Origin: Actinomycetota bacterium | GTDB taxonomy: Bacteria > Actinomycetota > UBA4738 > HRBIN12 | DNA: 25,592 nucleotides | Reading direction: 5' to 3' | Assembly: GCA_040006375.1 (NCBI GenBank) | Contig: JBDTXD010000001.1 | Coordinates: 1 to 25,592 of the forward strand | In this document: positions 657 to 9,889 of the stretch, piece after piece | Layout: each line of letters opens with the position of its first letter | Position numbering within the stretch: the stretch's first letter is position 1 | The notes under the pieces: model-generated | What the model was told of the DNA's origin: nothing | Database searches by the model: none | Seen by the model: the letters and a program-made list of their open reading frames with translations, nothing else | Translations under genes and position numbers: made by a program

Positions 657-2063
657 ATGATCGCCCGTTCTCGTTTCGCTGCAACCTATGCCGACGCCGC
701 CCACATCCCTCTGTGGCTGGACCGACCCCGCCCCTTCGACGACCAGCCGGCCCTGAAGGGCGACGTCACCGCGGACCTTGTGGTGGTCGGCGGAGGGTTC
801 ACCGGCCTGTGGACGGCCCTCCTGGCGAAGGAGGCGGATCCAGGGCGAGACGTGCTGCTCCTGGAACAGCGCGAGGTCGCGAATGCCGCCACCGGTCGCA
901 ACGGCGGATTCTGCGCCGCCACGCTCACCCACGGCTTGGGCAACGGTGCCGCACGGTGGCCGGATCAGATGCCCGAACTCGAACGGCAGGGAGCAGAGAA
1001 CCTCGCAGGGATCGAGGACACGGTCCATCGCTACGGCATCGACTGCGACTGGCGACACACCGGCGAGCTGATCCTGGCGACGCAGCCCTGGCAACTCGAA
1101 GGGCTCCGCCAGACCGTCGAGCACGCCGCAACCCTCGGACGGGCCGTCCAGTTCCTGGACCGTGATGAGGTAGCCCAGGAGGTCCGCTCACCCACCTACC
1201 TGGGCGGGTTCCGGGACGTGGAGGGCGCGGCCATGGTTGACCCAGCGCGGCTCGCGTGGGGCCTGACGACGACGTGTCTGCAACTGGGGGTTCGCATCCA
1301 CGAGCACACGGCCGCGATCGGGCTGGAGAAGACCGGTGCCGGCGTACTGGTGCGCACGCGGCGCGGGAACGTCCGCGCGGCACACGTCGCATTGGGCACG
1401 AACGTCTTTCCGAGCCTGGTTCGCCGCGTGCGGCCCTACGTGGTGCCGGTCTACGACTACGTCCTTGCGACCGAACCCATCGCTGCCGAGCGATGGGCCG
1501 AGATCGGCTGGGAAACCCGCACGGGACTGGCCGACGCGGGCAACCGGTTCCACTATTACTCTCGGACCGACGACGGGCGGATCGTCTGGGGAGGGTTCGA
1601 CGCGATCTATCACTACGGAAACGGCCTGCGGCCCGAACACGAGCAGCGTGCAACTACGTTCGAGCTCCTGGCCGAACACTTCTTCGAGACCTTCCCGCAG
1701 CTGGTCGGGACGCGATTCAGCCACACGTGGGGCGGCGCCATCGACACGTGCACGCGGTTCTCGCCGTTCTTCGGCACCGCGCTGGGTGGACGCGTGGCGT
1801 ATGCGCTGGGCTACACCGGCATGGGCGTGGGCGCGTCGCGATTCGGGGCGAGCGTGATGCTCGACAAGCTCGCGGGAGCCCGAACCGAACGGACGCGGTT
1901 GGAGCTGACGCAACGTAAGCCCGTCCCGTTCCCGCCGGAACCGATCCGGTGGGCGGGCATCACGCTCACCAAACGGGCGCTGGCGCACGCGGACGAGCAC
2001 GGCGGCGCGAGGAACCTCTGGCTCCGAACCCTGGATCGGTTCGGCGTCGGCTTCGACAGCTGA
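657..2063 (+). CDS. FAD-dependent oxidoreductase, DAO/DadA family (PuuB/OrdL-like)
   Basis: VVVGGGFTGLWTA dinucleotide-binding motif, ATGRNGGF, HTWGGAID and GYTGMGVGASRFG. ATG657 is preferred over the ORF-track start at 576, which overlaps the upstream gene. Confidence 0.85.
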   Translation: MIARSRFAATYADAAHIPLWLDRPRPFDDQPALKGDVTADLVVVGGGFTGLWTALLAKEADPGRDVLLLEQREVANAATGRNGGFCAATLTHGLGNGAARWPDQMPELERQGAENLAGIEDTVHRYGIDCDWRHTGELILATQPWQLEGLRQTVEHAATLGRAVQFLDRDEVAQEVRSPTYLGGFRDVEGAAMVDPARLAWGLTTTCLQLGVRIHEHTAAIGLEKTGAGVLVRTRRGNVRAAHVALGTNVFPSLVRRVRPYVVPVYDYVLATEPIAAERWAEIGWETRTGLADAGNRFHYYSRTDDGRIVWGGFDAIYHYGNGLRPEHEQRATTFELLAEHFFETFPQLVGTRFSHTWGGAIDTCTRFSPFFGTALGGRVAYALGYTGMGVGASRFGASVMLDKLAGARTERTRLELTQRKPVPFPPEPIRWAGITLTKRALAHADEHGGARNLWLRTLDRFGVGFDS

Positions 2064-2073
2064 ACCACGCGAC

Positions 2074-2079
2074 TACACT
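2074..2079 (+). promoter_or_regulatory. Putative -10 box (TACACT), leaderless start at 2087
   Basis: TANNNT 7 nt upstream of the ATG; no SD. Confidence 0.55.
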
Positions 2080-2086
2080 CCCGCGC

Positions 2087-2338
2087 ATGCTCGACATCAC
2101 CGAACGCGCAGCAGCCGTGGTGCACCAGTCGGAGCAGGCGGCGCGGCGATTCAACCCAAACGCTCGGATCCGCCTCGTGCCAACCGGGGGCGGCGTCGCG
2201 TTCGCCTTCACCGACTCCGCCGACCCCACTGATGCCGAGCTCGACTGCCTCGGAACGCTCCTGCTGGTGACTGAGGGGATCGAGGGCACCATCGACATCG
2301 GCGAACACAACGCGCCCGTCCTGGTTCCCACGCGTTGA
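2087..2338 (+). CDS. Small hypothetical protein (83 aa), HesB/IscA-like N-terminus
   Basis: MLDITERAAAVV...RIRL resembles HesB-fold starts. Codon usage is coding-like and a TACACT box precedes the ATG. Only one Cys. Confidence 0.65.
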   Translation: MLDITERAAAVVHQSEQAARRFNPNARIRLVPTGGGVAFAFTDSADPTDAELDCLGTLLLVTEGIEGTIDIGEHNAPVLVPTR

Positions 2339-2406
2339 TCCGAGGGACTCTCAGACGGTTCGCTGCGCCCGGGCCTCGCGTCTGCGTCCATCGCCTGCTC
2401 CTTTCC

Positions 2407-3615
2407 CTAATGCGTGCCGGCGCTCGCTGCGTCGGGGACCATGCGGTCGCGTTCGAACCGGTCGACGGCGAATGGGGCGATGAGATCGGGCACCCGCCCC
2501 GTCACGAGCGTCTCCGCCAGCAGTTTGCCGAAGATGGGCGAGCCTTTGAAGCCCCACGTCCCCATCCCCGCCATAAGGAAGAATTTCTCCACATCCGTGG
2601 CGCCGAGCATCGGTGAGGAATCGGGCGTCATGTCGCAGAGGCCCGTCCACTGGCGCATCACGCGCGCGTTCGCGATGAACGGCAGGAACATGATGGTGCG
2701 CCGGGATGCCTCAGCCAGGAAGTCGAACGTCGACCGCGTGGAATACGTGTTGTAGGGCAGGATCTCTGCGCCCACCAGGAACTCGCCACGCGCGGTCTGC
2801 GATATGTATACGTACAGGTCCATCGAGCTGATCAATCCGTCGAAGACGTGCGCGTAGGGTTCGGTCACGAAGGCCTGCAAGGGGTGCGTGCTGATGGGGA
2901 GCTGCAGTCCCGCCATCCCGGCGACGATCGACGAGTACCCCGCGACTGCGCTGACAACCGTCCCCGCACCCACCGGCCCTGCCTCGGTCTGGACACCCGA
3001 ACACCCGCCGTTCGCGACATCGATCCCGGTGACACCCACGCCTTCGTGGATGTGGACGCCCAGGCGTTGCGCCGCGGTGGCGTAGCCCCAGACCACCGAG
3101 TCGTGGTGCGCGATGGATCCGGGCGGGTGGTAGCTGGCGCCGATGACCGGCAGCTCTCCGCCGCCCGACATATCGATGTCCGGGCACATCTTCAGGACTT
3201 CCTCGGGGCTCAGGATGTCGGTCTGGACAGCGTACGCACGGTTCAGGAGGGATTTGTCACGCTCGACCTCGAGGGCATCGGTGGTGTGGACCAGGTCGAG
3301 TTCGCCGGCGGTGGTGAACATGATGTTGAAGTCCAGGCGTTGGCTGAGCGTTCGCCAGATCTCCAGGCTCGCCTTGTAGAGCGGCACGGTTTCCGGCGTG
3401 TTGTAGTTGGCGCGAACCACCTGCGTATTCCGGCCGCTGCCCCCGCCGCCGATGTAGGCACGCTCGAACACCGCGACGTTCGTGATGCCGTGGTTGGCGG
3501 CCAGGTTATACGCCAGGCTCAGCCCGTTGACGCCGCCTCCGATGATGACGACGTCGTAGTGCGGGTTCACCGCTCTTCGCTTCAGGAACGTGTGTCGTTT
3601 CAGCAGGCCGGTCAC
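2407..3615 (-). CDS. soxB: Sarcosine oxidase-like beta subunit (FAD-binding)
   Basis: YDVVIIGGGVNG, GGGSGRNTQVVRANY, IAHHDSVVWGYA (equivalent of the FMN-linking His region), RQWTGLCDMTPDSSP, GTWGFK and C-terminal ASAGTH. GTG3615 overlaps the soxG stop (GTGA). Confidence 0.85.
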   Translation of the reverse strand: MTGLLKRHTFLKRRAVNPHYDVVIIGGGVNGLSLAYNLAANHGITNVAVFERAYIGGGGSGRNTQVVRANYNTPETVPLYKASLEIWRTLSQRLDFNIMFTTAGELDLVHTTDALEVERDKSLLNRAYAVQTDILSPEEVLKMCPDIDMSGGGELPVIGASYHPPGSIAHHDSVVWGYATAAQRLGVHIHEGVGVTGIDVANGGCSGVQTEAGPVGAGTVVSAVAGYSSIVAGMAGLQLPISTHPLQAFVTEPYAHVFDGLISSMDLYVYISQTARGEFLVGAEILPYNTYSTRSTFDFLAEASRRTIMFLPFIANARVMRQWTGLCDMTPDSSPMLGATDVEKFFLMAGMGTWGFKGSPIFGKLLAETLVTGRVPDLIAPFAVDRFERDRMVPDAASAGTH

Positions 3616-4088
3616 CGCGCACCCCACGCGGTCCCGGGCGCGGCCCTCACGCCGAGATCGGCGCACCGGCCCATGATCCGCTCGTGCAGGTAGTCGCCCC
3701 ATACCGCGGCGACGAGCACATGCGCGCGGCCGTGGTCGATCACGATACGCGCAGGGATGTGAGCGACGTCGCCCTGCGTGAAACCATCGATCGCGGGGTC
3801 GAGGTCCAGATGCGAGAGTCGCTGGAGCGCCTCCGGAAGGTGGTCGCCAGTGAGCGTCCACACCGCCCACCCGTCCGTCCCGTCCACGATCAGGGCGTCC
3901 GGGTCTCCCGCCGTCACTGCCCCAGCGTCGCGGAGCAGCGCCTCTCCCGCGCCGGCTTCGCGAACGAACATCTCCTCGTCGGGCGCGATCCGGCAGCGCG
4001 TGGCGCCCGCGGGGGCGAGCGCGTCGAGCGCCGCAGGTTCGGCGTGCACCTGCACAACCGCTGCCGACGTGCGGGAGACCTCAAGCAC
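3612..4088 (-). CDS. soxG: Sarcosine oxidase-like gamma subunit
   Basis: 158 aa with RIAPDEEM, VDGTDGWAVWTLTG and WGDYLHERI. Overlaps both soxA (8 bp) and soxB (4 bp). Confidence 0.75.
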   Translation of the reverse strand: MLEVSRTSAAVVQVHAEPAALDALAPAGATRCRIAPDEEMFVREAGAGEALLRDAGAVTAGDPDALIVDGTDGWAVWTLTGDHLPEALQRLSHLDLDPAIDGFTQGDVAHIPARIVIDHGRAHVLVAAVWGDYLHERIMGRCADLGVRAAPGTAWGAR

Positions 4089-6705
4089 GGAGTCTCGCTC
4101 CTTCGGGGTCGTAGAACGGCGTCGGTACGACGCGACAGCCGACCCCGTTGGCAGTCAACGCCGATGGGAACTCCCCATCGACCGATCGCAGCCAGCCGAG
4201 ACCCACGCCGTATCCGAGTGAAGGCGAATGACCGCATGATGTGACCCTGCCGACGATCCGATCACCGGTCATGAGCGGCACCCCGCGCTGCGGCTCCGCG
4301 TCGAACCGCAGGCCAACCAGCTTCCGTTCCGATGGCAAGGCCGCCATCCGCTCGAGCGACGAACGACCGATGAAATCACCCTTGTCCATGGCGACCGCCC
4401 AGCCCAGTCCCAGCTTGTCCGGGTAGTCGTCGGGAAGCGTGTCCTGTGCGAGATAGAGATGCCCCTTCTCCATCCGAAGCAGATCGAGCGCGTCCAGACC
4501 GTGCGGCCGGATGTCCCACTCGGCGCCGGCCTCGATCAGCGCCGTCCACAGTGCCACGCTGCACGAGCGCGGATGATGCAGTTCGAACGACAGCTCTCCG
4601 ACGAACCCCACCCGGACCGCCCGGCACGGCACGCCGGCGATCGTCACCTCGGCGTGGCCGGGATAGCGGATGGCGCCCGCAGACAGATCGTCGTCGCTGA
4701 GTTCGGCGAGGAGATCGCGCGCATGGGGACCAGCGACGTTGATCGCGCCGAGCATCGCGGTCTGGTTCATCACGTGTGCCCGGATGCCGAACCGGTCCGC
4801 CCAGTTCCGAAGCCCTGCTTCCATCCTGTCCGCACCGCCAGACGTCGAGGTCAGGTAATACCGCCCATCGGGAAGCGCGCAGATGAGGCCGTCGTCCATG
4901 ACGTACCCGGCCTCGTCCAGCGCGAGGAGGTACCGGCTGCGACCCGGCGTGAGATCGGTCACGCGCGTCGGGAAGACGCGGTCCACCAGGGCCGTCGCGT
5001 CCCGCCCGGCGATGAGGAACTTGCCCAGCGTGCTCACGTCCATCAGGGACACGCGTTCGCGAACCGCCCGATACTCCCCCCGCCAGTCCCCGTAGTGATA
5101 CGGACGGATCCAACTCCCCGACCAGTCCAGGCGGGCGCCGGCCGCGCCGTGGGTGTCGTGGAGCGCGGTGTGTTTCGGGATGACCTCGTTCACCCCGCCC
5201 GCGATATCGCCCAGGCGGACCGTGCGGGCGGGTGGGCGAGCGGTGGTTCGAGCGCCGGCCCCCGAGCTTGCTGCACCGGCGGCGGCGAACGCGGCCAGAT
5301 GCCGCCCGCACATCGCTCCCTGGCAGGGCCCCATGGTCGCGGTCGTGTACCGCTTCAGGATCTCCGAGGACTGCCAGCCCTCCGCCCACGCGGCCTCCAA
5401 GTCGTGGACCGACACGTCTGCGCAGAGACACACGTACCCGTCGACGCCCATCGCCACCGGATCGGGCTCGCGCGGCGTCTCCTCCCCCGCGCCGACGCCG
5501 GCCGCCGCGCCCGAGGCCTCCGCCTCTTCGAGCGAACAGCCGGGAAGGACGACCTCCCCCGCGCCGCACACCGACACATCGCCGCTCATCCGGAGCAGCC
5601 CGTCGCGAGGTGCGGAGCCGACGGAGAGCGTGAGCACGTCACACTCGATCGTGCGTTCTCCCTGCTGGGTCGAGAGCCGCACGGCGGTGAGGTGACTCCG
5701 GCCCTCGGCTGCTAGCACCTTCGCGCCCCGCAACACCTCGATGTCGGTGGGCACCGCCTCGGCGAGGGCTTCAGGGACCACCGCCGCGAGCACGGTCACG
5801 CCGGCAGCCTTCAGCGTGCCCAGGTGCAGGATCCCCTCCACCGAATCCGCGACGACAACCGCCCGATCCCCGGGCGCGACACCGTGCACCCCCGCCAGCC
5901 TCGCGGCTCCGCGGCCGAGCCACACACCGGGGAGATCGTTGCCGGGGAAGACTGCGTGCGTCTCGACGGCGCCCGTCGCCACGATCACTCGGCCGGGATC
6001 GATCTGGAGGAGTTCGTCCGGGCCGACCACCGGCACCAAAGGTCCGTCGTAGACGCCGACGGCGGTGTGACCGGCCAGCACGGTCACGTTGGACACGGCG
6101 TCCAACTCGCGAGCCAGCGCCACCACCCGGTCGCGTGCCGCTCCCGGCGCGATCGCCGCCCCGGGTACCCCTTCGTCGCAGAGGAGCACTCGCGCGCCGG
6201 TGCCGCCCGCCGCCTTCGCTGCGGCCAGGCCCGCGGCCCCCCCGCCAACCACCAGCACGTCGGTGTGGACGTGGCGGCTCGGCTTCATGCGCGGCGCCTG
6301 CCCCATCGGCAAGGCGCCGATCCCGGTCGCGCGCCGGATGATCTTCTCCGCGAACTCCCAGGCCCACCGCGGCCGAACGAACACCTTGTAATAGAAGCCG
6401 ACCGGCATGAACCGATGGAGGTGATCGGTGATCTTCAGCACGTCGCGTTCGGTCGAAGGCCATCCGGATTCCCGGCGAACGGTGGCACCTTCTCGAGCCG
6501 GCGTGGTGCACGCCCGGCACCCAGGCTGTCCGTCGACGGTGACCAAACAGTTCGGACAGTCGCCGGTCATGCAATAGAGACCGCGCCGACGGTGATGCTT
6601 CAACGATCGTGTGAACGTCCGCACCCCGGCGCGGTAGAGCGCCGAGCCGACGGTGTCTCCGTCGCGGAGGGGGACGCGCTTGCCTTCGAAGTCGATGGTG
6701 GCCAC
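4081..6705 (-). CDS. soxA: Sarcosine oxidase-like alpha subunit: 2Fe-2S domain + pyridine nucleotide oxidoreductase + BFD-like Cys cluster + GcvT-like folate-binding domain
   Basis: GDTVGSAL...RSLKHHRRRGLYC, GFYYKVF, GGGAAG, KRYTTATMGPCQG, DVSTLGKF, YLTSTSGGA, RVGFVGELSFELH and LRMEKG. GTG6705 overlaps the soxD stop (TAGTG). Confidence 0.85.
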   Translation of the reverse strand: MATIDFEGKRVPLRDGDTVGSALYRAGVRTFTRSLKHHRRRGLYCMTGDCPNCLVTVDGQPGCRACTTPAREGATVRRESGWPSTERDVLKITDHLHRFMPVGFYYKVFVRPRWAWEFAEKIIRRATGIGALPMGQAPRMKPSRHVHTDVLVVGGGAAGLAAAKAAGGTGARVLLCDEGVPGAAIAPGAARDRVVALARELDAVSNVTVLAGHTAVGVYDGPLVPVVGPDELLQIDPGRVIVATGAVETHAVFPGNDLPGVWLGRGAARLAGVHGVAPGDRAVVVADSVEGILHLGTLKAAGVTVLAAVVPEALAEAVPTDIEVLRGAKVLAAEGRSHLTAVRLSTQQGERTIECDVLTLSVGSAPRDGLLRMSGDVSVCGAGEVVLPGCSLEEAEASGAAAGVGAGEETPREPDPVAMGVDGYVCLCADVSVHDLEAAWAEGWQSSEILKRYTTATMGPCQGAMCGRHLAAFAAAGAASSGAGARTTARPPARTVRLGDIAGGVNEVIPKHTALHDTHGAAGARLDWSGSWIRPYHYGDWRGEYRAVRERVSLMDVSTLGKFLIAGRDATALVDRVFPTRVTDLTPGRSRYLLALDEAGYVMDDGLICALPDGRYYLTSTSGGADRMEAGLRNWADRFGIRAHVMNQTAMLGAINVAGPHARDLLAELSDDDLSAGAIRYPGHAEVTIAGVPCRAVRVGFVGELSFELHHPRSCSVALWTALIEAGAEWDIRPHGLDALDLLRMEKGHLYLAQDTLPDDYPDKLGLGWAVAMDKGDFIGRSSLERMAALPSERKLVGLRFDAEPQRGVPLMTGDRIVGRVTSCGHSPSLGYGVGLGWLRSVDGEFPSALTANGVGCRVVPTPFYDPEGARLRA

Positions 6706-6935
6706 TAGGCGCCGGTCCGGTTCGTCACCGTGTCGCGCGTCACCTGGAACCACCGGCGGCAGCCGAACGCGTGGTACCAGCGTTCGTCCTGAGGGCCGGG
6801 CGCGTTCTCGCGCAGGTACACGCGAACGAAGTCCTCGTGAGGCGTCGGCGCATCCAGGTCACGGAGCTCGCCGCCGAAGCTGAACTCCGTGTACGGGCGA
6901 GGACCGCACGTGGGACACGCGATCTTGATCGTCAT
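6705..6935 (-). CDS. soxD: Sarcosine oxidase-like delta subunit (Zn-binding)
   Basis: CPTCGPRPYTEF and ERWYHAFGCRRWF...RDTVTN give the Cys/Cys/His/Cys Zn ligands. AGGTGG SD upstream. Confidence 0.9.
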   Translation of the reverse strand: MTIKIACPTCGPRPYTEFSFGGELRDLDAPTPHEDFVRVYLRENAPGPQDERWYHAFGCRRWFQVTRDTVTNRTGA

Positions 6936-7059: not shown

Positions 7060-8703
7060 TCAACCCTGGTGCACGACCTCGCCGCCGACCATCGTCATCT
7101 CAACCTTCGCGGCCAAGACGCGCCGGGGATCCGGCTTCACGCACCCGAAGAGGTCGTGAGACAGGAGCGCGAGGTCGGCGTACTTGCCGGGGGAGATCGA
7201 ACCTCGGTCATCCTCCGCAAAGCATGCGTACGCCCCGCCCATCGTGTAGGCGCGGATCGCCGACGCCAGGTCGACACGCTCCTCCGGGACCCACGACTCC
7301 GATCCGTCCAGGGTCGCTCGCGTGATCGCCGAGTAGATCCCGATGATCGGATCCATCTCCGCGACGTTCCAGTCCGAGCTGAACGCCAGCGTCGCCCCCG
7401 CCTCTTGCAACGAACGGAACGCCCAGGCATACCGCCACCGCTCCTCGCCGACGTTCGCCCGCCAGTCGGCCACGATGTCGGGAGAGCAGTGCCGCGGCTG
7501 CATCCCCGGGATCACGCCGAGCTCGGCGAAGCGGGGGATGTCCTCCTGGGTCAGGCATTCGGTGTGGATCATGAGGTGTCGCCTGTCGCCCGGACCGTTG
7601 GCCTGACGCGCCGCCTCGATCCCGTCCAGCGCGGTCCGGATCCCGCGGTCACCGGTGGCGTGGATGTGACACTGGAACCCCTGCTGTTCGAGCTCGGTGA
7701 TCAAGCCGCCGAACTCCTTCGGATCCCAGAACGTGTCGCCTCGCTCGCCGGGACGATTCGCATAGGGCTCGACCATCGCGGCCGTCCACGGCTCGATCAC
7801 ATCGTCGATATAGAGCTTGATGGGCGCCACGCGGAGACGGTCGTCCGCGAACCGCTCGCGCGCCGCCACGAACTCCGCCCGCTCGGCGTCGGTGGTGCCG
7901 ACCGGGTGGAACATCGCTGCGACGAGTCGAGACTGCAGTCGGCCCTCATCGCGTGCCCGCTGGTAGATCCACAGATCGTCCGGAGAGTTCTGCGGTTCAA
8001 CGATGGTGGTGATCCCGAACTGGGTCGCCATATCCAGGCTCTCGAGCGTCCGCGTGTACTGCTGGTCATGCGCATACCCGGGGAGCACGCCCTCCAGTGC
8101 CGCCTGTCCCCGCCGACTTATCCCCATCACGGCGAACCCGGTGACGAACCCGGTCGGTTCGCCCCCCGCGTCATGCTGCACATGACCGAACGGAAGATCG
8201 CCGGAACCCCGGGTCACCCCGAAGATCTCCATCGCCTCGCGGTTCATCCAGACGTTGTGCGCGTCGTAGCTCAGGAGGAAGGCGGGCTTGCCGCCTGTCA
8301 CGCCTTCCAGATCACGCCAGGTGGGCAGGCGACCGCCCGGCATCGCGGAGTAGTTCCACCCGACGCCCTCGATCCACGCGAGGTCCGGGCGCCCGTCCGA
8401 CCAGCTTCGCACCCGCTCGGTGATCTCCTCGAGCGTCGCGGCACCCGCGAGGTTCACCTCCAACGGGTTCGACCCCAGACGGACATGGTTGTGTGTGTCG
8501 ATGAATCCGGGCAGGAGCATCTTCCTACCCGCGTCGATGACCCGGGTGCCCGGCCCGGTGTGCGCGCCGGCCTCCGAGTCGAGTCCGACCCAGGCGATCC
8601 GATCGCCGACCACTGCGACCGCGTCCGTCCAGGGCAGGTTCGGGTCGACCGTGTAGACCCTGGCGTTGCGGATGAGGGTGTCGGCCGGCTGCGTCGCGTT
8701 CAT
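7060..8703 (-). CDS. Amidohydrolase family 3 (YtcJ/NfdA-like) metallo-hydrolase
   Basis: LPGFIDTHNH, IKLYIDD, HIHATGDRG, IHTE, FSSDWNV, AYTMGGAYA and GSISPGKYADL. Confidence 0.9.
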   Translation of the reverse strand: MNATQPADTLIRNARVYTVDPNLPWTDAVAVVGDRIAWVGLDSEAGAHTGPGTRVIDAGRKMLLPGFIDTHNHVRLGSNPLEVNLAGAATLEEITERVRSWSDGRPDLAWIEGVGWNYSAMPGGRLPTWRDLEGVTGGKPAFLLSYDAHNVWMNREAMEIFGVTRGSGDLPFGHVQHDAGGEPTGFVTGFAVMGISRRGQAALEGVLPGYAHDQQYTRTLESLDMATQFGITTIVEPQNSPDDLWIYQRARDEGRLQSRLVAAMFHPVGTTDAERAEFVAARERFADDRLRVAPIKLYIDDVIEPWTAAMVEPYANRPGERGDTFWDPKEFGGLITELEQQGFQCHIHATGDRGIRTALDGIEAARQANGPGDRRHLMIHTECLTQEDIPRFAELGVIPGMQPRHCSPDIVADWRANVGEERWRYAWAFRSLQEAGATLAFSSDWNVAEMDPIIGIYSAITRATLDGSESWVPEERVDLASAIRAYTMGGAYACFAEDDRGSISPGKYADLALLSHDLFGCVKPDPRRVLAAKVEMTMVGGEVVHQG

Positions 8704-8773
8704 GCCCCATCCTGTCTCGCGAGGGGTGCCCGAGGCAAGCGGTCGTCCGGAAGCCGCTTATCCTGCATCGATC

Positions 8774-9889
8774 ATGCTCATCGACATCCTGGCGTTCATC
8801 GGAGGGATCCTGCTGGTCGTGACCGCTTTGGATTCGGCCGTCAGGACGGTGCTGGTGCCCCGCGCGCTCCAGGCGTACCTCGCCCGAACCGTGTTCGTCA
8901 CGGTACGCCGCCTGTTCGGGCTGCGTACCGGTGCGCGGCACACATACGAACACAGGGACCGCGTGCTTGCGTTCTACGCGCCGTTCGCGCTGCTGACGCT
9001 CCTGGCCACGTGGCTGACGTTCGTGCTCGCCGGCTACACGTTCCTGTTCTTCGCGCTCGGGGTGCACCCGCTGCGCGAGGCGTTCCTTCTCTCCGGCTCG
9101 TCGGCGTTCACGCTTGGTTCCGCGACGCACAGCGGGCTCCCGGTCGCGGTGCTCGTGTTCAGCGAGGCCGCGATCGGCCTCATGCTGCTGGCGCTCCTCA
9201 TCACGTACCTGCCTAGCCTCTACTCCGCCTTCAGTAGGCGCGAGGTCGGCGTAACCAAACTCGAGGTCCGAGCGGGGCAACCGGCATCGGGCATCGTCCT
9301 GATCGAACGCGCCTGGCTGGTCGGACGGTTCGAAGATCTGAAGGCCTTCTGGCAGGACTGGGAGGACTGGTTCGCCGAGGTGGATGAGACCCACACCACG
9401 TACGGGACGCTGGTCTACTACCGCTCGCCGCACGGGAACCAGTCGTGGATCACCGCCGCGGGCGCGGTCTTGGACGGCGCCGCGCTCCTCGCGAGCTGCG
9501 TTGCGGTGCCGCCGACTCCGGAGCCACAGTTCACCATCCGCGCGGGTTTTCTCTGTCTGGTGCACATCGCGCAGTTCTTCCACCAGCCCGTGAACATCGA
9601 TCCCGCGCCCACCGACCCGATCTCGGTGACACGCGAGGAATTCGACGCGGCGTTCGACCAGCTCGAGGCCGCCGGCGTGCCCATGAAGGCCGATCGCGAG
9701 CAGGCGTGGCGAGACTTCGCGGGCTGGCGGGTGAACTACGACCAGGCGCTCATCAGCATCTGCAGGATGACCTTCGCTCCGCCAGCTCTGTGGTCATCGG
9801 ACCGCTACCCCGACGAGCATTACAAGCCGACCTACTTCCCCAAACGAAGGGAACGCAGACGCGAGGAGACTGAGGCGCAGAGGCGATAA
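8774..9889 (+). CDS. Membrane protein, potassium-channel-like family with non-canonical pore loop
   Basis: Hydrophobic helices flank SGSSAFTLGSA. ITYLPSLYSAFSRRE follows, then a soluble C-terminal domain (ETHTTYGTLVYYRS..QSW). ATG8774 chosen at the first hydrophobic helix. Confidence 0.65.
   Translation: MLIDILAFIGGILLVVTALDSAVRTVLVPRALQAYLARTVFVTVRRLFGLRTGARHTYEHRDRVLAFYAPFALLTLLATWLTFVLAGYTFLFFALGVHPLREAFLLSGSSAFTLGSATHSGLPVAVLVFSEAAIGLMLLALLITYLPSLYSAFSRREVGVTKLEVRAGQPASGIVLIERAWLVGRFEDLKAFWQDWEDWFAEVDETHTTYGTLVYYRSPHGNQSWITAAGAVLDGAALLASCVAVPPTPEPQFTIRAGFLCLVHIAQFFHQPVNIDPAPTDPISVTREEFDAAFDQLEAAGVPMKADREQAWRDFAGWRVNYDQALISICRMTFAPPALWSSDRYPDEHYKPTYFPKRRERRREETEAQRR

Follow-up and report, generated by a model that had tools for sequence, protein, structure and literature searches.

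We analyzed a 25,592-nucleotide stretch of DNA, here called the window, from an Actinomycetota bacterium (GenBank assembly GCA_040006375.1, contig JBDTXD010000001.1, positions 1 to 25,592). Its reverse strand carries four genes (2407-6935) that encode relatives of heterotetrameric sarcosine oxidase in the order delta-alpha-gamma-beta, with overlapping junctions that point to translational coupling. The alpha subunit has two sets of four cysteines inside iron-sulfur (Fe-S) domains and, in the same chain, a tetrahydrofolate-binding domain of the GcvT type. To our knowledge, heterotetrameric sarcosine oxidase, a textbook flavoenzyme, has been studied only in a form that lacks these cysteines. The window system is a real, well-conserved and uncharacterized variant of this known enzyme family, and it probably demethylates small amines, passing the electrons to a carrier other than O2.

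The reading frame of alpha is longest at 4081-6753, and its translation is a SoxA-like protein. Its start was placed at the GTG at 6705, where one base is shared with the stop codon of the soxD-like gene (TAGTG); the resulting protein of 874 residues matches database gene call P0002 at 100% identity. Pfam scans matched the GCV_T model from end to end (1-255 of 255) and GCV_T_C as well, so the fusion to a complete GcvT-like domain proposed in an earlier sequence-only reading of this DNA is borne out. Both the glycines of the Rossmann region (G154, G156 and G159) and an Asp-Asp pair in the GcvT part (D604/D605) occupy invariant columns in the alignment of relatives. The nucleotide at the Rossmann site is NAD+ in canonical SoxA and FAD in the alpha subunit of opine dehydrogenase.

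An AlphaFold2 model of alpha, built from 60 aligned relatives, has a mean pLDDT of 91.0. Its top Foldseek matches, both over the whole length, are the alpha subunits of two solved sarcosine oxidases, 1VRQ_A (E 8e-74) and 2GAG_A (E 3e-71). The C-terminal half of the model matches T-protein 1WOO/1WOS with a TM score of 0.91, and the comparison with 1Y56_A, the alpha subunit of an archaeal proline dehydrogenase, gives a TM score of 0.71.

The partner subunits belong to the same enzyme family. In delta, Cys7, Cys10, His55 and Cys59 fit the Cys3His zinc site of the sarcosine oxidase delta subunit, and beta keeps the histidine that binds FMN covalently in sarcosine oxidase ('HHD', aligned to 'KHD' in 1VRQ_B/2GAG_B). 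Gamma has no match in Pfam or NCBIfam, the soxG model included, and is recognized by profile comparison only (hhalign against SoxG-type gamma subunits, probability 92%, E 6.3e-7). The other three subunits score below the cut-offs of their NCBIfam models: delta reaches 73.3 bits against 116.5 for TIGR01374, alpha 519.7 against 1164 for TIGR01372 and beta 374.7 against 529.45 for TIGR01373.

Table 1. Genes and alpha-subunit domains at the locus, in window coordinates.
Feature	Position	Strand	Evidence and remarks
Beta subunit, 402 aa, DAO-family flavoprotein	2407..3615	-	1VRQ_B E 1.9e-91; GTGA overlap with gamma
Gamma subunit, short, 158 aa	3612..4088	-	8-nt overlap with the end of alpha; position between alpha and beta kept in relatives
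Alpha subunit	4081..6705	-	Domain order Fer2_4, Rossmann (Pyr_redox_2), BFD-like/SO_alpha_A3, GCV_T, GCV_T_C
GcvT-type tetrahydrofolate-binding domain and C-terminal barrel	4108..5163	-	PF01571 E 7e-63; PF08669 E 9.5e-12
BFD-like [2Fe-2S] domain, within the SO_alpha_A3 region	5293..5436	-	PF04324 (Fer2_BFD) E 1.5e-7, 32.1 bits against a cut-off of 26; PF17806 E 1.1e-14
Rossmann region, predicted dinucleotide-binding (VVGGGAAGL...CDE)	5584..6261	-	PF07992 E 2.2e-9
Fer2_4 N-terminal ferredoxin-like domain	6466..6699	-	PF13510 E 3e-24, 85.3 bits against a cut-off of 22.8
soxD-like delta subunit, 76 aa	6705..6935	-	Pfam SoxD E 4.2e-22
Amidohydrolase_3 gene	7060..8703	-	PF07969 E 2.7e-85; 124-bp gap, upstream of soxD

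Two sets of four cysteines in the alpha subunit

The N-terminal set, C-x4-C-x2-C-x12-C, consists of C45, C50, C53 and C66 and is encoded at 6508-6573 (Cys61, Cys66, Cys69 and Cys82 in the longest frame). The second set, C-x-C-x32-C-x4-C in the BFD-like domain, consists of C426, C428, C461 and C466 and is encoded at 5308-5430 (Cys442, Cys444, Cys477 and Cys482). Translation and mapping of the cysteines place both sets exactly where the sequence-only reading had located them. All eight residues lie inside Pfam [2Fe-2S] domains that score above their gathering cut-offs, and we infer that alpha would hold two [2Fe-2S] clusters. A fifth N-terminal cysteine, the first of the CRAC motif, is valine in most relatives and falls outside the ligand set.

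Alignment with the solved alpha subunits confirmed the earlier statement that canonical SoxA has other residues at these sites ('EEPNAL' and 'FVDLQRD...DQGKTS'). In 1VRQ_A and 2GAG_A, 'GIFSAGVEEPNAL' faces 'GLYCMTGDCPNCL' of the window alpha, and 'FVDLQRD...ANDQGKTSG' faces 'YVCLCAD...MGPCQGAMCG'. The first three N-terminal sites are thereby S/E/A and the four sites of the BFD set D/Q/D/S. The fourth N-terminal site lies beyond the end of this alignment; canonical-type relatives have threonine there.

We tabulated these sites in 241 full-length relatives, collected by a word-indexed search together with an exhaustive search of representatives of 50%-identity clusters. Both sets are present in 141 of them and neither in 94, leaving 6 mixed cases; as judged from this table, retention or loss of one set goes with that of the other across the family. 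Among 31 Cys-bearing sequences, with identities to the window alpha as low as 30%, all eight cysteines are invariant, as are just 47 alignment columns in total. By this measure, the conservation of the cysteines is far beyond chance.

Conserved cysteines need not carry a cluster: the two sets might be ligands of zinc or mononuclear iron, or be joined in disulfides, and act as structural staples only. Four-Cys sites can bind zinc, and the delta subunit of this family is itself a zinc protein. The crystal structure of a related proline dehydrogenase (1Y56) reportedly contains iron. We nevertheless consider this explanation highly improbable, given that both motifs sit in [2Fe-2S] domain models above cut-off and that their spacings, a longer spacer in the second motif aside, are those of motifs assigned to [2Fe-2S] clusters in opine dehydrogenase, in which approximately 7.5 Fe were measured per alpha4-beta4-gamma4 complex (PMC4575208). 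As the sequence-only reading had stated, the opine, D-hydroxyproline and archaeal L-proline dehydrogenases carry such motifs, the second of them with a shorter spacer (Watanabe et al., PMC4575208).

Ancestry, loss and distribution of the Fe-S form

To place the Fe-S form in the family we used three trees. The full-length tree contains 93 rows and was built with the eight cysteine columns taken out. It separates a canonical 'D-Q-D-S' clade of 21 rows (100%) from a super-clade of 72 rows (100%), which combines a 'D-D-S-S' clade from Proteobacteria with a grade of Fe-S lineages holding three more Cys-less groups. The window alpha falls outside the canonical clade (100%) and within a clade of 12 rows, all of them Fe-S forms (100%), from Actinomycetota, Gemmatimonadota, Chloroflexota and Acidobacteriota. 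On this tree the N-terminal set changes state five times and the BFD set four times; both change jointly in four of five phylogenetically independent contrasts, which are too few for significance.

The other two trees supply the roots. When the GcvT half was rooted with GcvT paralogues from the window's own genome, a canonical Cys-less clade (100%) stood opposite a clade (95%) containing every Fe-S protein together with nested Cys-less groups. The tree of the N-terminal half, a quick search that kept the cysteine columns in, was rooted with Cys-bearing relatives that lack GcvT, from Amycolatopsis jejuensis and Spongiactinospora gelatinilytica. Here the Fe-S forms are basal, and both the canonical clade and the D-D-S-S clade fall inside them at approximately 91% support. 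A homologue search with the N-terminal half, aimed at outgroups without GcvT, returned the same clade only; the two outgroups came from a DNA motif scan. In both of these cultured actinomycetes (L135:761-2504 in A. jejuensis; L131:16-1762 in S. gelatinilytica), the alpha-like protein is split over two open reading frames, one with Fer2_4 and Rossmann domains and one of 110-157 aa with BFD-like cysteines, and all eight cysteines are present.

Cysteines are present both in the outgroup and at the base of the large clade, so the Fe-S state comes out as ancestral under either root. The trees thus indicate that canonical SoxA is the derived, Cys-less form. They point to at least five losses of the cysteines, among them those in canonical sarcosine oxidase and in the proteobacterial clade of candidate N-methylglutamate dehydrogenases. 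The sequence-only reading had called the window protein a hybrid; a retained ancestral form describes it better. A recent natural loss of both clusters is seen in a cultured species of Thermoleophilia. The alpha of Conexibacter stalactiti KCTC 39840 (L044) is Cys-less (G-S-A-A / D-D-T-S) and nested in an all-Fe-S clade, and its neighbor in that clade (L041) has an intermediate state (C-C-S-C / D-D-S-S).

A scan of one genome per prokaryotic species for the DNA-encoded motif C-x2-G-x-C-P-N-C-L-V yielded at least 120 loci. Among the matches listed, at least 90 loci extend to the GcvT domain, and at least 88 of these have cysteine at every site seen. By phylum, these listed loci are Actinomycetota (at least 56), Chloroflexota (at least 19), Acidobacteriota (at least 6), Latescibacterota (at least 5), Gemmatimonadota (at least 2) and Poribacteria (at least 1), with one match lacking a phylum. 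At least 88 species-level genomes therefore contain the form that combines Fe-S sites with GcvT, and every one of them is metagenome-assembled; the cultured matches, among those listed, all lack GcvT. Far from rare, the Fe-S form is common in uncultured soil bacteria, and many abundant lineages of soil and sediment carry it, including most of the candidate N-methylglutamate dehydrogenases outside Proteobacteria.

The top tblastn matches against plasmids, from Paracoccus versutus, Shinella and Rhizobium sp. CB3171, are all Cys-less. RefSeq/PGAP names two such alphas, on plasmids of Shinella zoogloeoides (L019) and Rhizobium sp. CB3171 (L020), '2Fe-2S iron-sulfur cluster-binding protein'. PGAP gives Fe-S alphas this name too. 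Since Cys-less alphas carry it, the name is no evidence for a cluster; it follows the Fer2_4 domain model and not the ligands. On pTAV4 of P. versutus, the delta subunit of a D-D-S-S-type operon (L021:5669-5938) lacks the N-terminal C-x2-C zinc motif ('MKIMTCPVNGPRN').

We found no purified or assayed Fe-S SoxA, MgdC or N-methylglutamate dehydrogenase in the open-access literature, which is no proof of absence, as subscription literature was not covered. One candidate example, 'TrSOX' from Thermomicrobium, was dropped after a literature search gave no heterotetrameric enzyme from this genus.

Substrate and electron acceptor

The gene contexts of 92 related loci were surveyed with GC3-filtered gene maps, Pfam scans and targeted tblastn searches, which replaced an all-versus-all clustering of neighboring reading frames because antisense frames in high-GC DNA confound it. 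Genes resembling gmaS (gamma-glutamylmethylamide synthetase) or mgsA or mgsC (subunits of N-methylglutamate synthase), of the N-methylglutamate (NMG) pathway, lie within approximately 6 kb of alpha at about 17 of 41 Fe-S loci and about 7 of 25 D-D-S-S loci, and at 0 of 19 canonical loci. They also accompany the Cys-less alpha of C. stalactiti, which sits in a gmaS-mgsABC cluster, and a gene for formate-tetrahydrofolate ligase is often found alongside them. Because NMG genes adjoin so many of its loci and none of the canonical ones, the super-clade is, on the evidence of context, largely the N-methylglutamate dehydrogenase (MgdABCD) family, with non-proteobacterial members mostly of the Fe-S type.

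This raises the possibility that the window encodes the same Fe-S enzyme with N-methylglutamate as its physiological substrate, the operon being an equivalent of mgdABCD whose gmaS and mgsABC partners lie in an unassembled part of the genome. Besides the counts given above, such a role would fit the nesting of the window's clade among NMG-linked Fe-S lineages and the state of the genome, which is just 64% complete. However, NMG genes are missing from the vicinity of alpha in all 12 members of the clade to which the window protein belongs, neither gmaS nor mgsC was found by tblastn in the window's genome at this completeness, and relatives within the clade lie in betaine and dimethylglycine clusters. 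We regard N-methylglutamate as an unlikely substrate.

The relatives in question differ in what surrounds the operon. In one (L050), it follows a row of genes for an aldehyde dehydrogenase, an MttB-family methyltransferase and a DMGDH-like protein. Directly upstream in another (L012) is a gene for homocysteine S-methyltransferase, and in a third (L062) an SNF transporter gene precedes the operon. In two more (L014 and L104) it lies behind a block encoding arginase, two CrtI-like flavoproteins, GcvT and a phosphodiesterase. Judged by their genes, these settings are clusters for the conversion of choline or betaine to dimethylglycine and on to sarcosine, which makes sarcosine, or a compound close to it, the simplest guess for the substrate. 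The suggestion of a substrate other than sarcosine, made in the sequence-only reading, is not needed: sister Fe-S lineages are placed in NMG clusters, but relatives in the window's clade are placed in these betaine-to-sarcosine clusters.

Beside soxD in the last two loci, and divergent from it, is a gene for a protein of 171-179 aa (L014:9075-9590 and L104:8084-8623); the L104 copy has a faint match to Nfu_N. A copy in the window's own genome (C46:6835-7365) stands at the end of a CrtI-CrtI-GcvT-phosphodiesterase block. This protein may have a role in Fe-S delivery.

Upstream of the window operon, the amidohydrolase gene was considered as an obligate partner of the Sox complex and rejected. 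It is found beside the operon of the closest relative (L013, 87% identity) and of no other clade member, and for this reason it is probably no fixed partner. A predicted membrane protein of 407 aa without a Pfam match is encoded divergently from the amidohydrolase, on the forward strand at 8666-9889, in an arrangement that L013 shares.

The window's genome also contains the canonical system. On contig C54, a complete soxB-soxD-soxA-soxG operon (896-5043, reverse strand) encodes an alpha subunit of 884 aa that is 34% identical to the window alpha and has no cysteine at the eight sites ('VEEAGAF' and 'YVDLQRD...IDQGRTSG'). Because an Fe-S system and a canonical Cys-less system sit together in one small genome, these sequences argue for different roles, in acceptor or in substrate, and against redundant copies. 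This genome of 1.5 Mb holds 10 GcvT-domain matches, two MttB-family methyltransferases, fusions of DAO and GcvT domains resembling DMGDH and at least six CrtI-like flavoprotein paralogues, and its demethylation-related genes lie on contigs C2, C19, C25, C46, C64, C128, C160 and C218. From its gene content, the organism appears to be specialized for the demethylation of methylated amines and betaines. On contig C2 (1432-13257), two tandem GcvT genes, a formate-tetrahydrofolate ligase gene and a gene for a large Fer2_4-containing oxidoreductase resembling formate dehydrogenase lie together in what looks like a module for the oxidation of tetrahydrofolate-bound C1 units.

Taking the domains, the ancestry and the contexts together, we think it rather likely, if far from assured, that the operon encodes a four-subunit, tetrahydrofolate-linked, N-demethylating flavoenzyme of an ancestral Fe-S branch that sends its electrons through two [2Fe-2S] clusters to an acceptor other than O2. 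In this scheme, the FAD of beta would oxidize the N-methyl C-N bond of a small N-methyl amino acid, most likely sarcosine derived from the breakdown of choline or glycine betaine. The electrons would pass to the His-linked FMN at the alpha/beta interface and from there to the [2Fe-2S] cluster of the BFD-like domain and to the second cluster in the N-terminal ferredoxin-like domain of alpha. They would leave the enzyme for the respiratory chain or a soluble carrier, while the iminium product would be caught on tetrahydrofolate in the GcvT domain, giving 5,10-methylene-tetrahydrofolate.

Several observations weigh against this scheme. Both cysteine sets have been lost repeatedly with the operon and its gene context unchanged, most clearly in C. 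stalactiti, suggesting that the clusters are dispensable for the demethylation chemistry itself. They may therefore be accessory, tuning the enzyme instead of enabling it. The proteobacterial clade found in NMG clusters, whose members are presumed N-methylglutamate dehydrogenases, lacks all eight cysteines; if these enzymes are dehydrogenases as annotated, Fe-S clusters would not be required for dehydrogenase behavior. In addition, no acceptor gene (for electron-transfer flavoprotein, ferredoxin or cytochrome) is conserved beside the operons in the relatives' loci, and the differing neighbor genes within the window's clade leave the substrate uncertain.

Some of these points would also suit an enzyme in which the clusters are present but offer the electrons no exit, serving as structural elements or as a sensor of redox state or O2 while O2 is reduced at FMN, as in ordinary sarcosine oxidase. 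Complete and repeated loss would mean that catalysis is independent of the clusters; moreover, an aerobic lifestyle is probable for the organism, and no gene of the operon is dedicated to an acceptor. Yet the eight cysteines are invariant over several phyla and down to 30% identity, the genome already encodes a canonical, oxidase-type soxBDAG, and purified homologues of the Fe-S type act as dye-linked dehydrogenases without oxidase activity (PMC4575208). On balance, such a role seems unlikely, though it deserves to be kept in mind.

A further variant, to which we give only a slim chance, involves the predicted dinucleotide-binding site of alpha. The two [2Fe-2S] clusters could wire the interface FMN to that site or to a low-potential carrier, making the enzyme an NAD(P)- or ferredoxin-linked demethylase that might confurcate or bifurcate electrons. 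Were this so, uncultured soil Actinomycetota, Chloroflexota and Acidobacteriota could oxidize methylated amines without O2. FngABC, an enzyme acting on glycerol-3-phosphate, is a distant relative whose B subunit falls in InterPro IPR051691, a family associated with cyanogenesis, opine oxidation and glycerol-3-phosphate dehydrogenation (PMC13689815).

If, as we favor, the clusters divert electrons from O2, then the annotation 'sarcosine oxidase' misstates how far the turnover of betaine, sarcosine and methylamine depends on O2, and how much energy it yields, in the organisms that carry these genes. Nature also provides on/off pairs for cluster function, in the Fe-S and Cys-less enzymes of a single genome and in Conexibacter and its Fe-S relatives.

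Comparison with known systems

The closest structural counterpart is the heterotetrameric sarcosine oxidase of Corynebacterium sp. U-96 and Stenotrophomonas maltophilia (TSOX, encoded by soxBDAG; PDB 1VRQ/1X31 and 2GAG), whose electron acceptor is O2. It has in common with the window system the four subunit families, the fold of alpha over its whole length, the GcvT domain for tetrahydrofolate, the beta flavoprotein with its FMN-linking histidine and the Cys3His site of delta. It differs in sequence, as the alphas are only about 27-34% identical and the window subunits score below the soxA, soxB and soxD cut-offs. The window system is further set apart by its gene order, D-A-G-B, its short gamma subunit and, above all, the eight cysteines where TSOX has S/E/A/T and D/Q/D/S.

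By descent, the window alpha is nearer to MgdABCD, the N-methylglutamate dehydrogenase of the NMG pathway for methylamine (PMC5023235), known from Methyloversatilis universalis and Methylobacterium extorquens. It belongs to the MgdABCD super-clade (100%), the sister group of canonical TSOX. Methylene-tetrahydrofolate is the predicted product of both systems, and many Fe-S relatives of the window alpha lie beside gmaS and mgsABC. In contrast, the alphas of proteobacterial NMG clusters are Cys-less ('T-D-T-D / D-D-S-S'), and no NMG genes lie near alpha in the window's clade.

Flavin-dependent N-demethylation coupled to tetrahydrofolate through a fused GcvT domain also occurs in dimethylglycine dehydrogenase and dimethylglycine oxidase (DMGDH/DMGO; PDB 4PAB and 1PJ5), which give their electrons to electron-transfer flavoprotein or O2. 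Unlike the window system, these are single chains of DAO and GcvT domains, without the Rossmann or Fe-S domains of the alpha type.

The cysteines themselves connect the window system to the Fe-S dye-linked dehydrogenases: opine dehydrogenase (OdhABC), D-hydroxyproline dehydrogenase (LhpBEF), HcnABC and archaeal L-proline dehydrogenase (1Y56). An alpha/beta core with FMN between the subunits is common to all. For opine dehydrogenase, the presence of FAD, FMN and [2Fe-2S] was demonstrated, and its activity is that of a dehydrogenase and not of an oxidase (PMC4575208). The first motif of these enzymes, C-x4-C-x2-C-x11-12-C, is matched by C45-x4-C50-x2-C53-x12-C66 of the window alpha. The second agrees at its ends and differs in its spacer, which is 15-20 residues long in the dye-linked dehydrogenases and 32 in the window alpha, a length typical of BFD domains. 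The dye-linked enzymes also differ in having neither a GcvT domain nor tetrahydrofolate capture, and several of them carry the first motif on a small subunit of its own. The Fe-S form seems to be the ancestral link between sarcosine oxidase and the Fe-S dye-linked dehydrogenases, which include those of proline, hydroxyproline and opines as well as HCN synthase.

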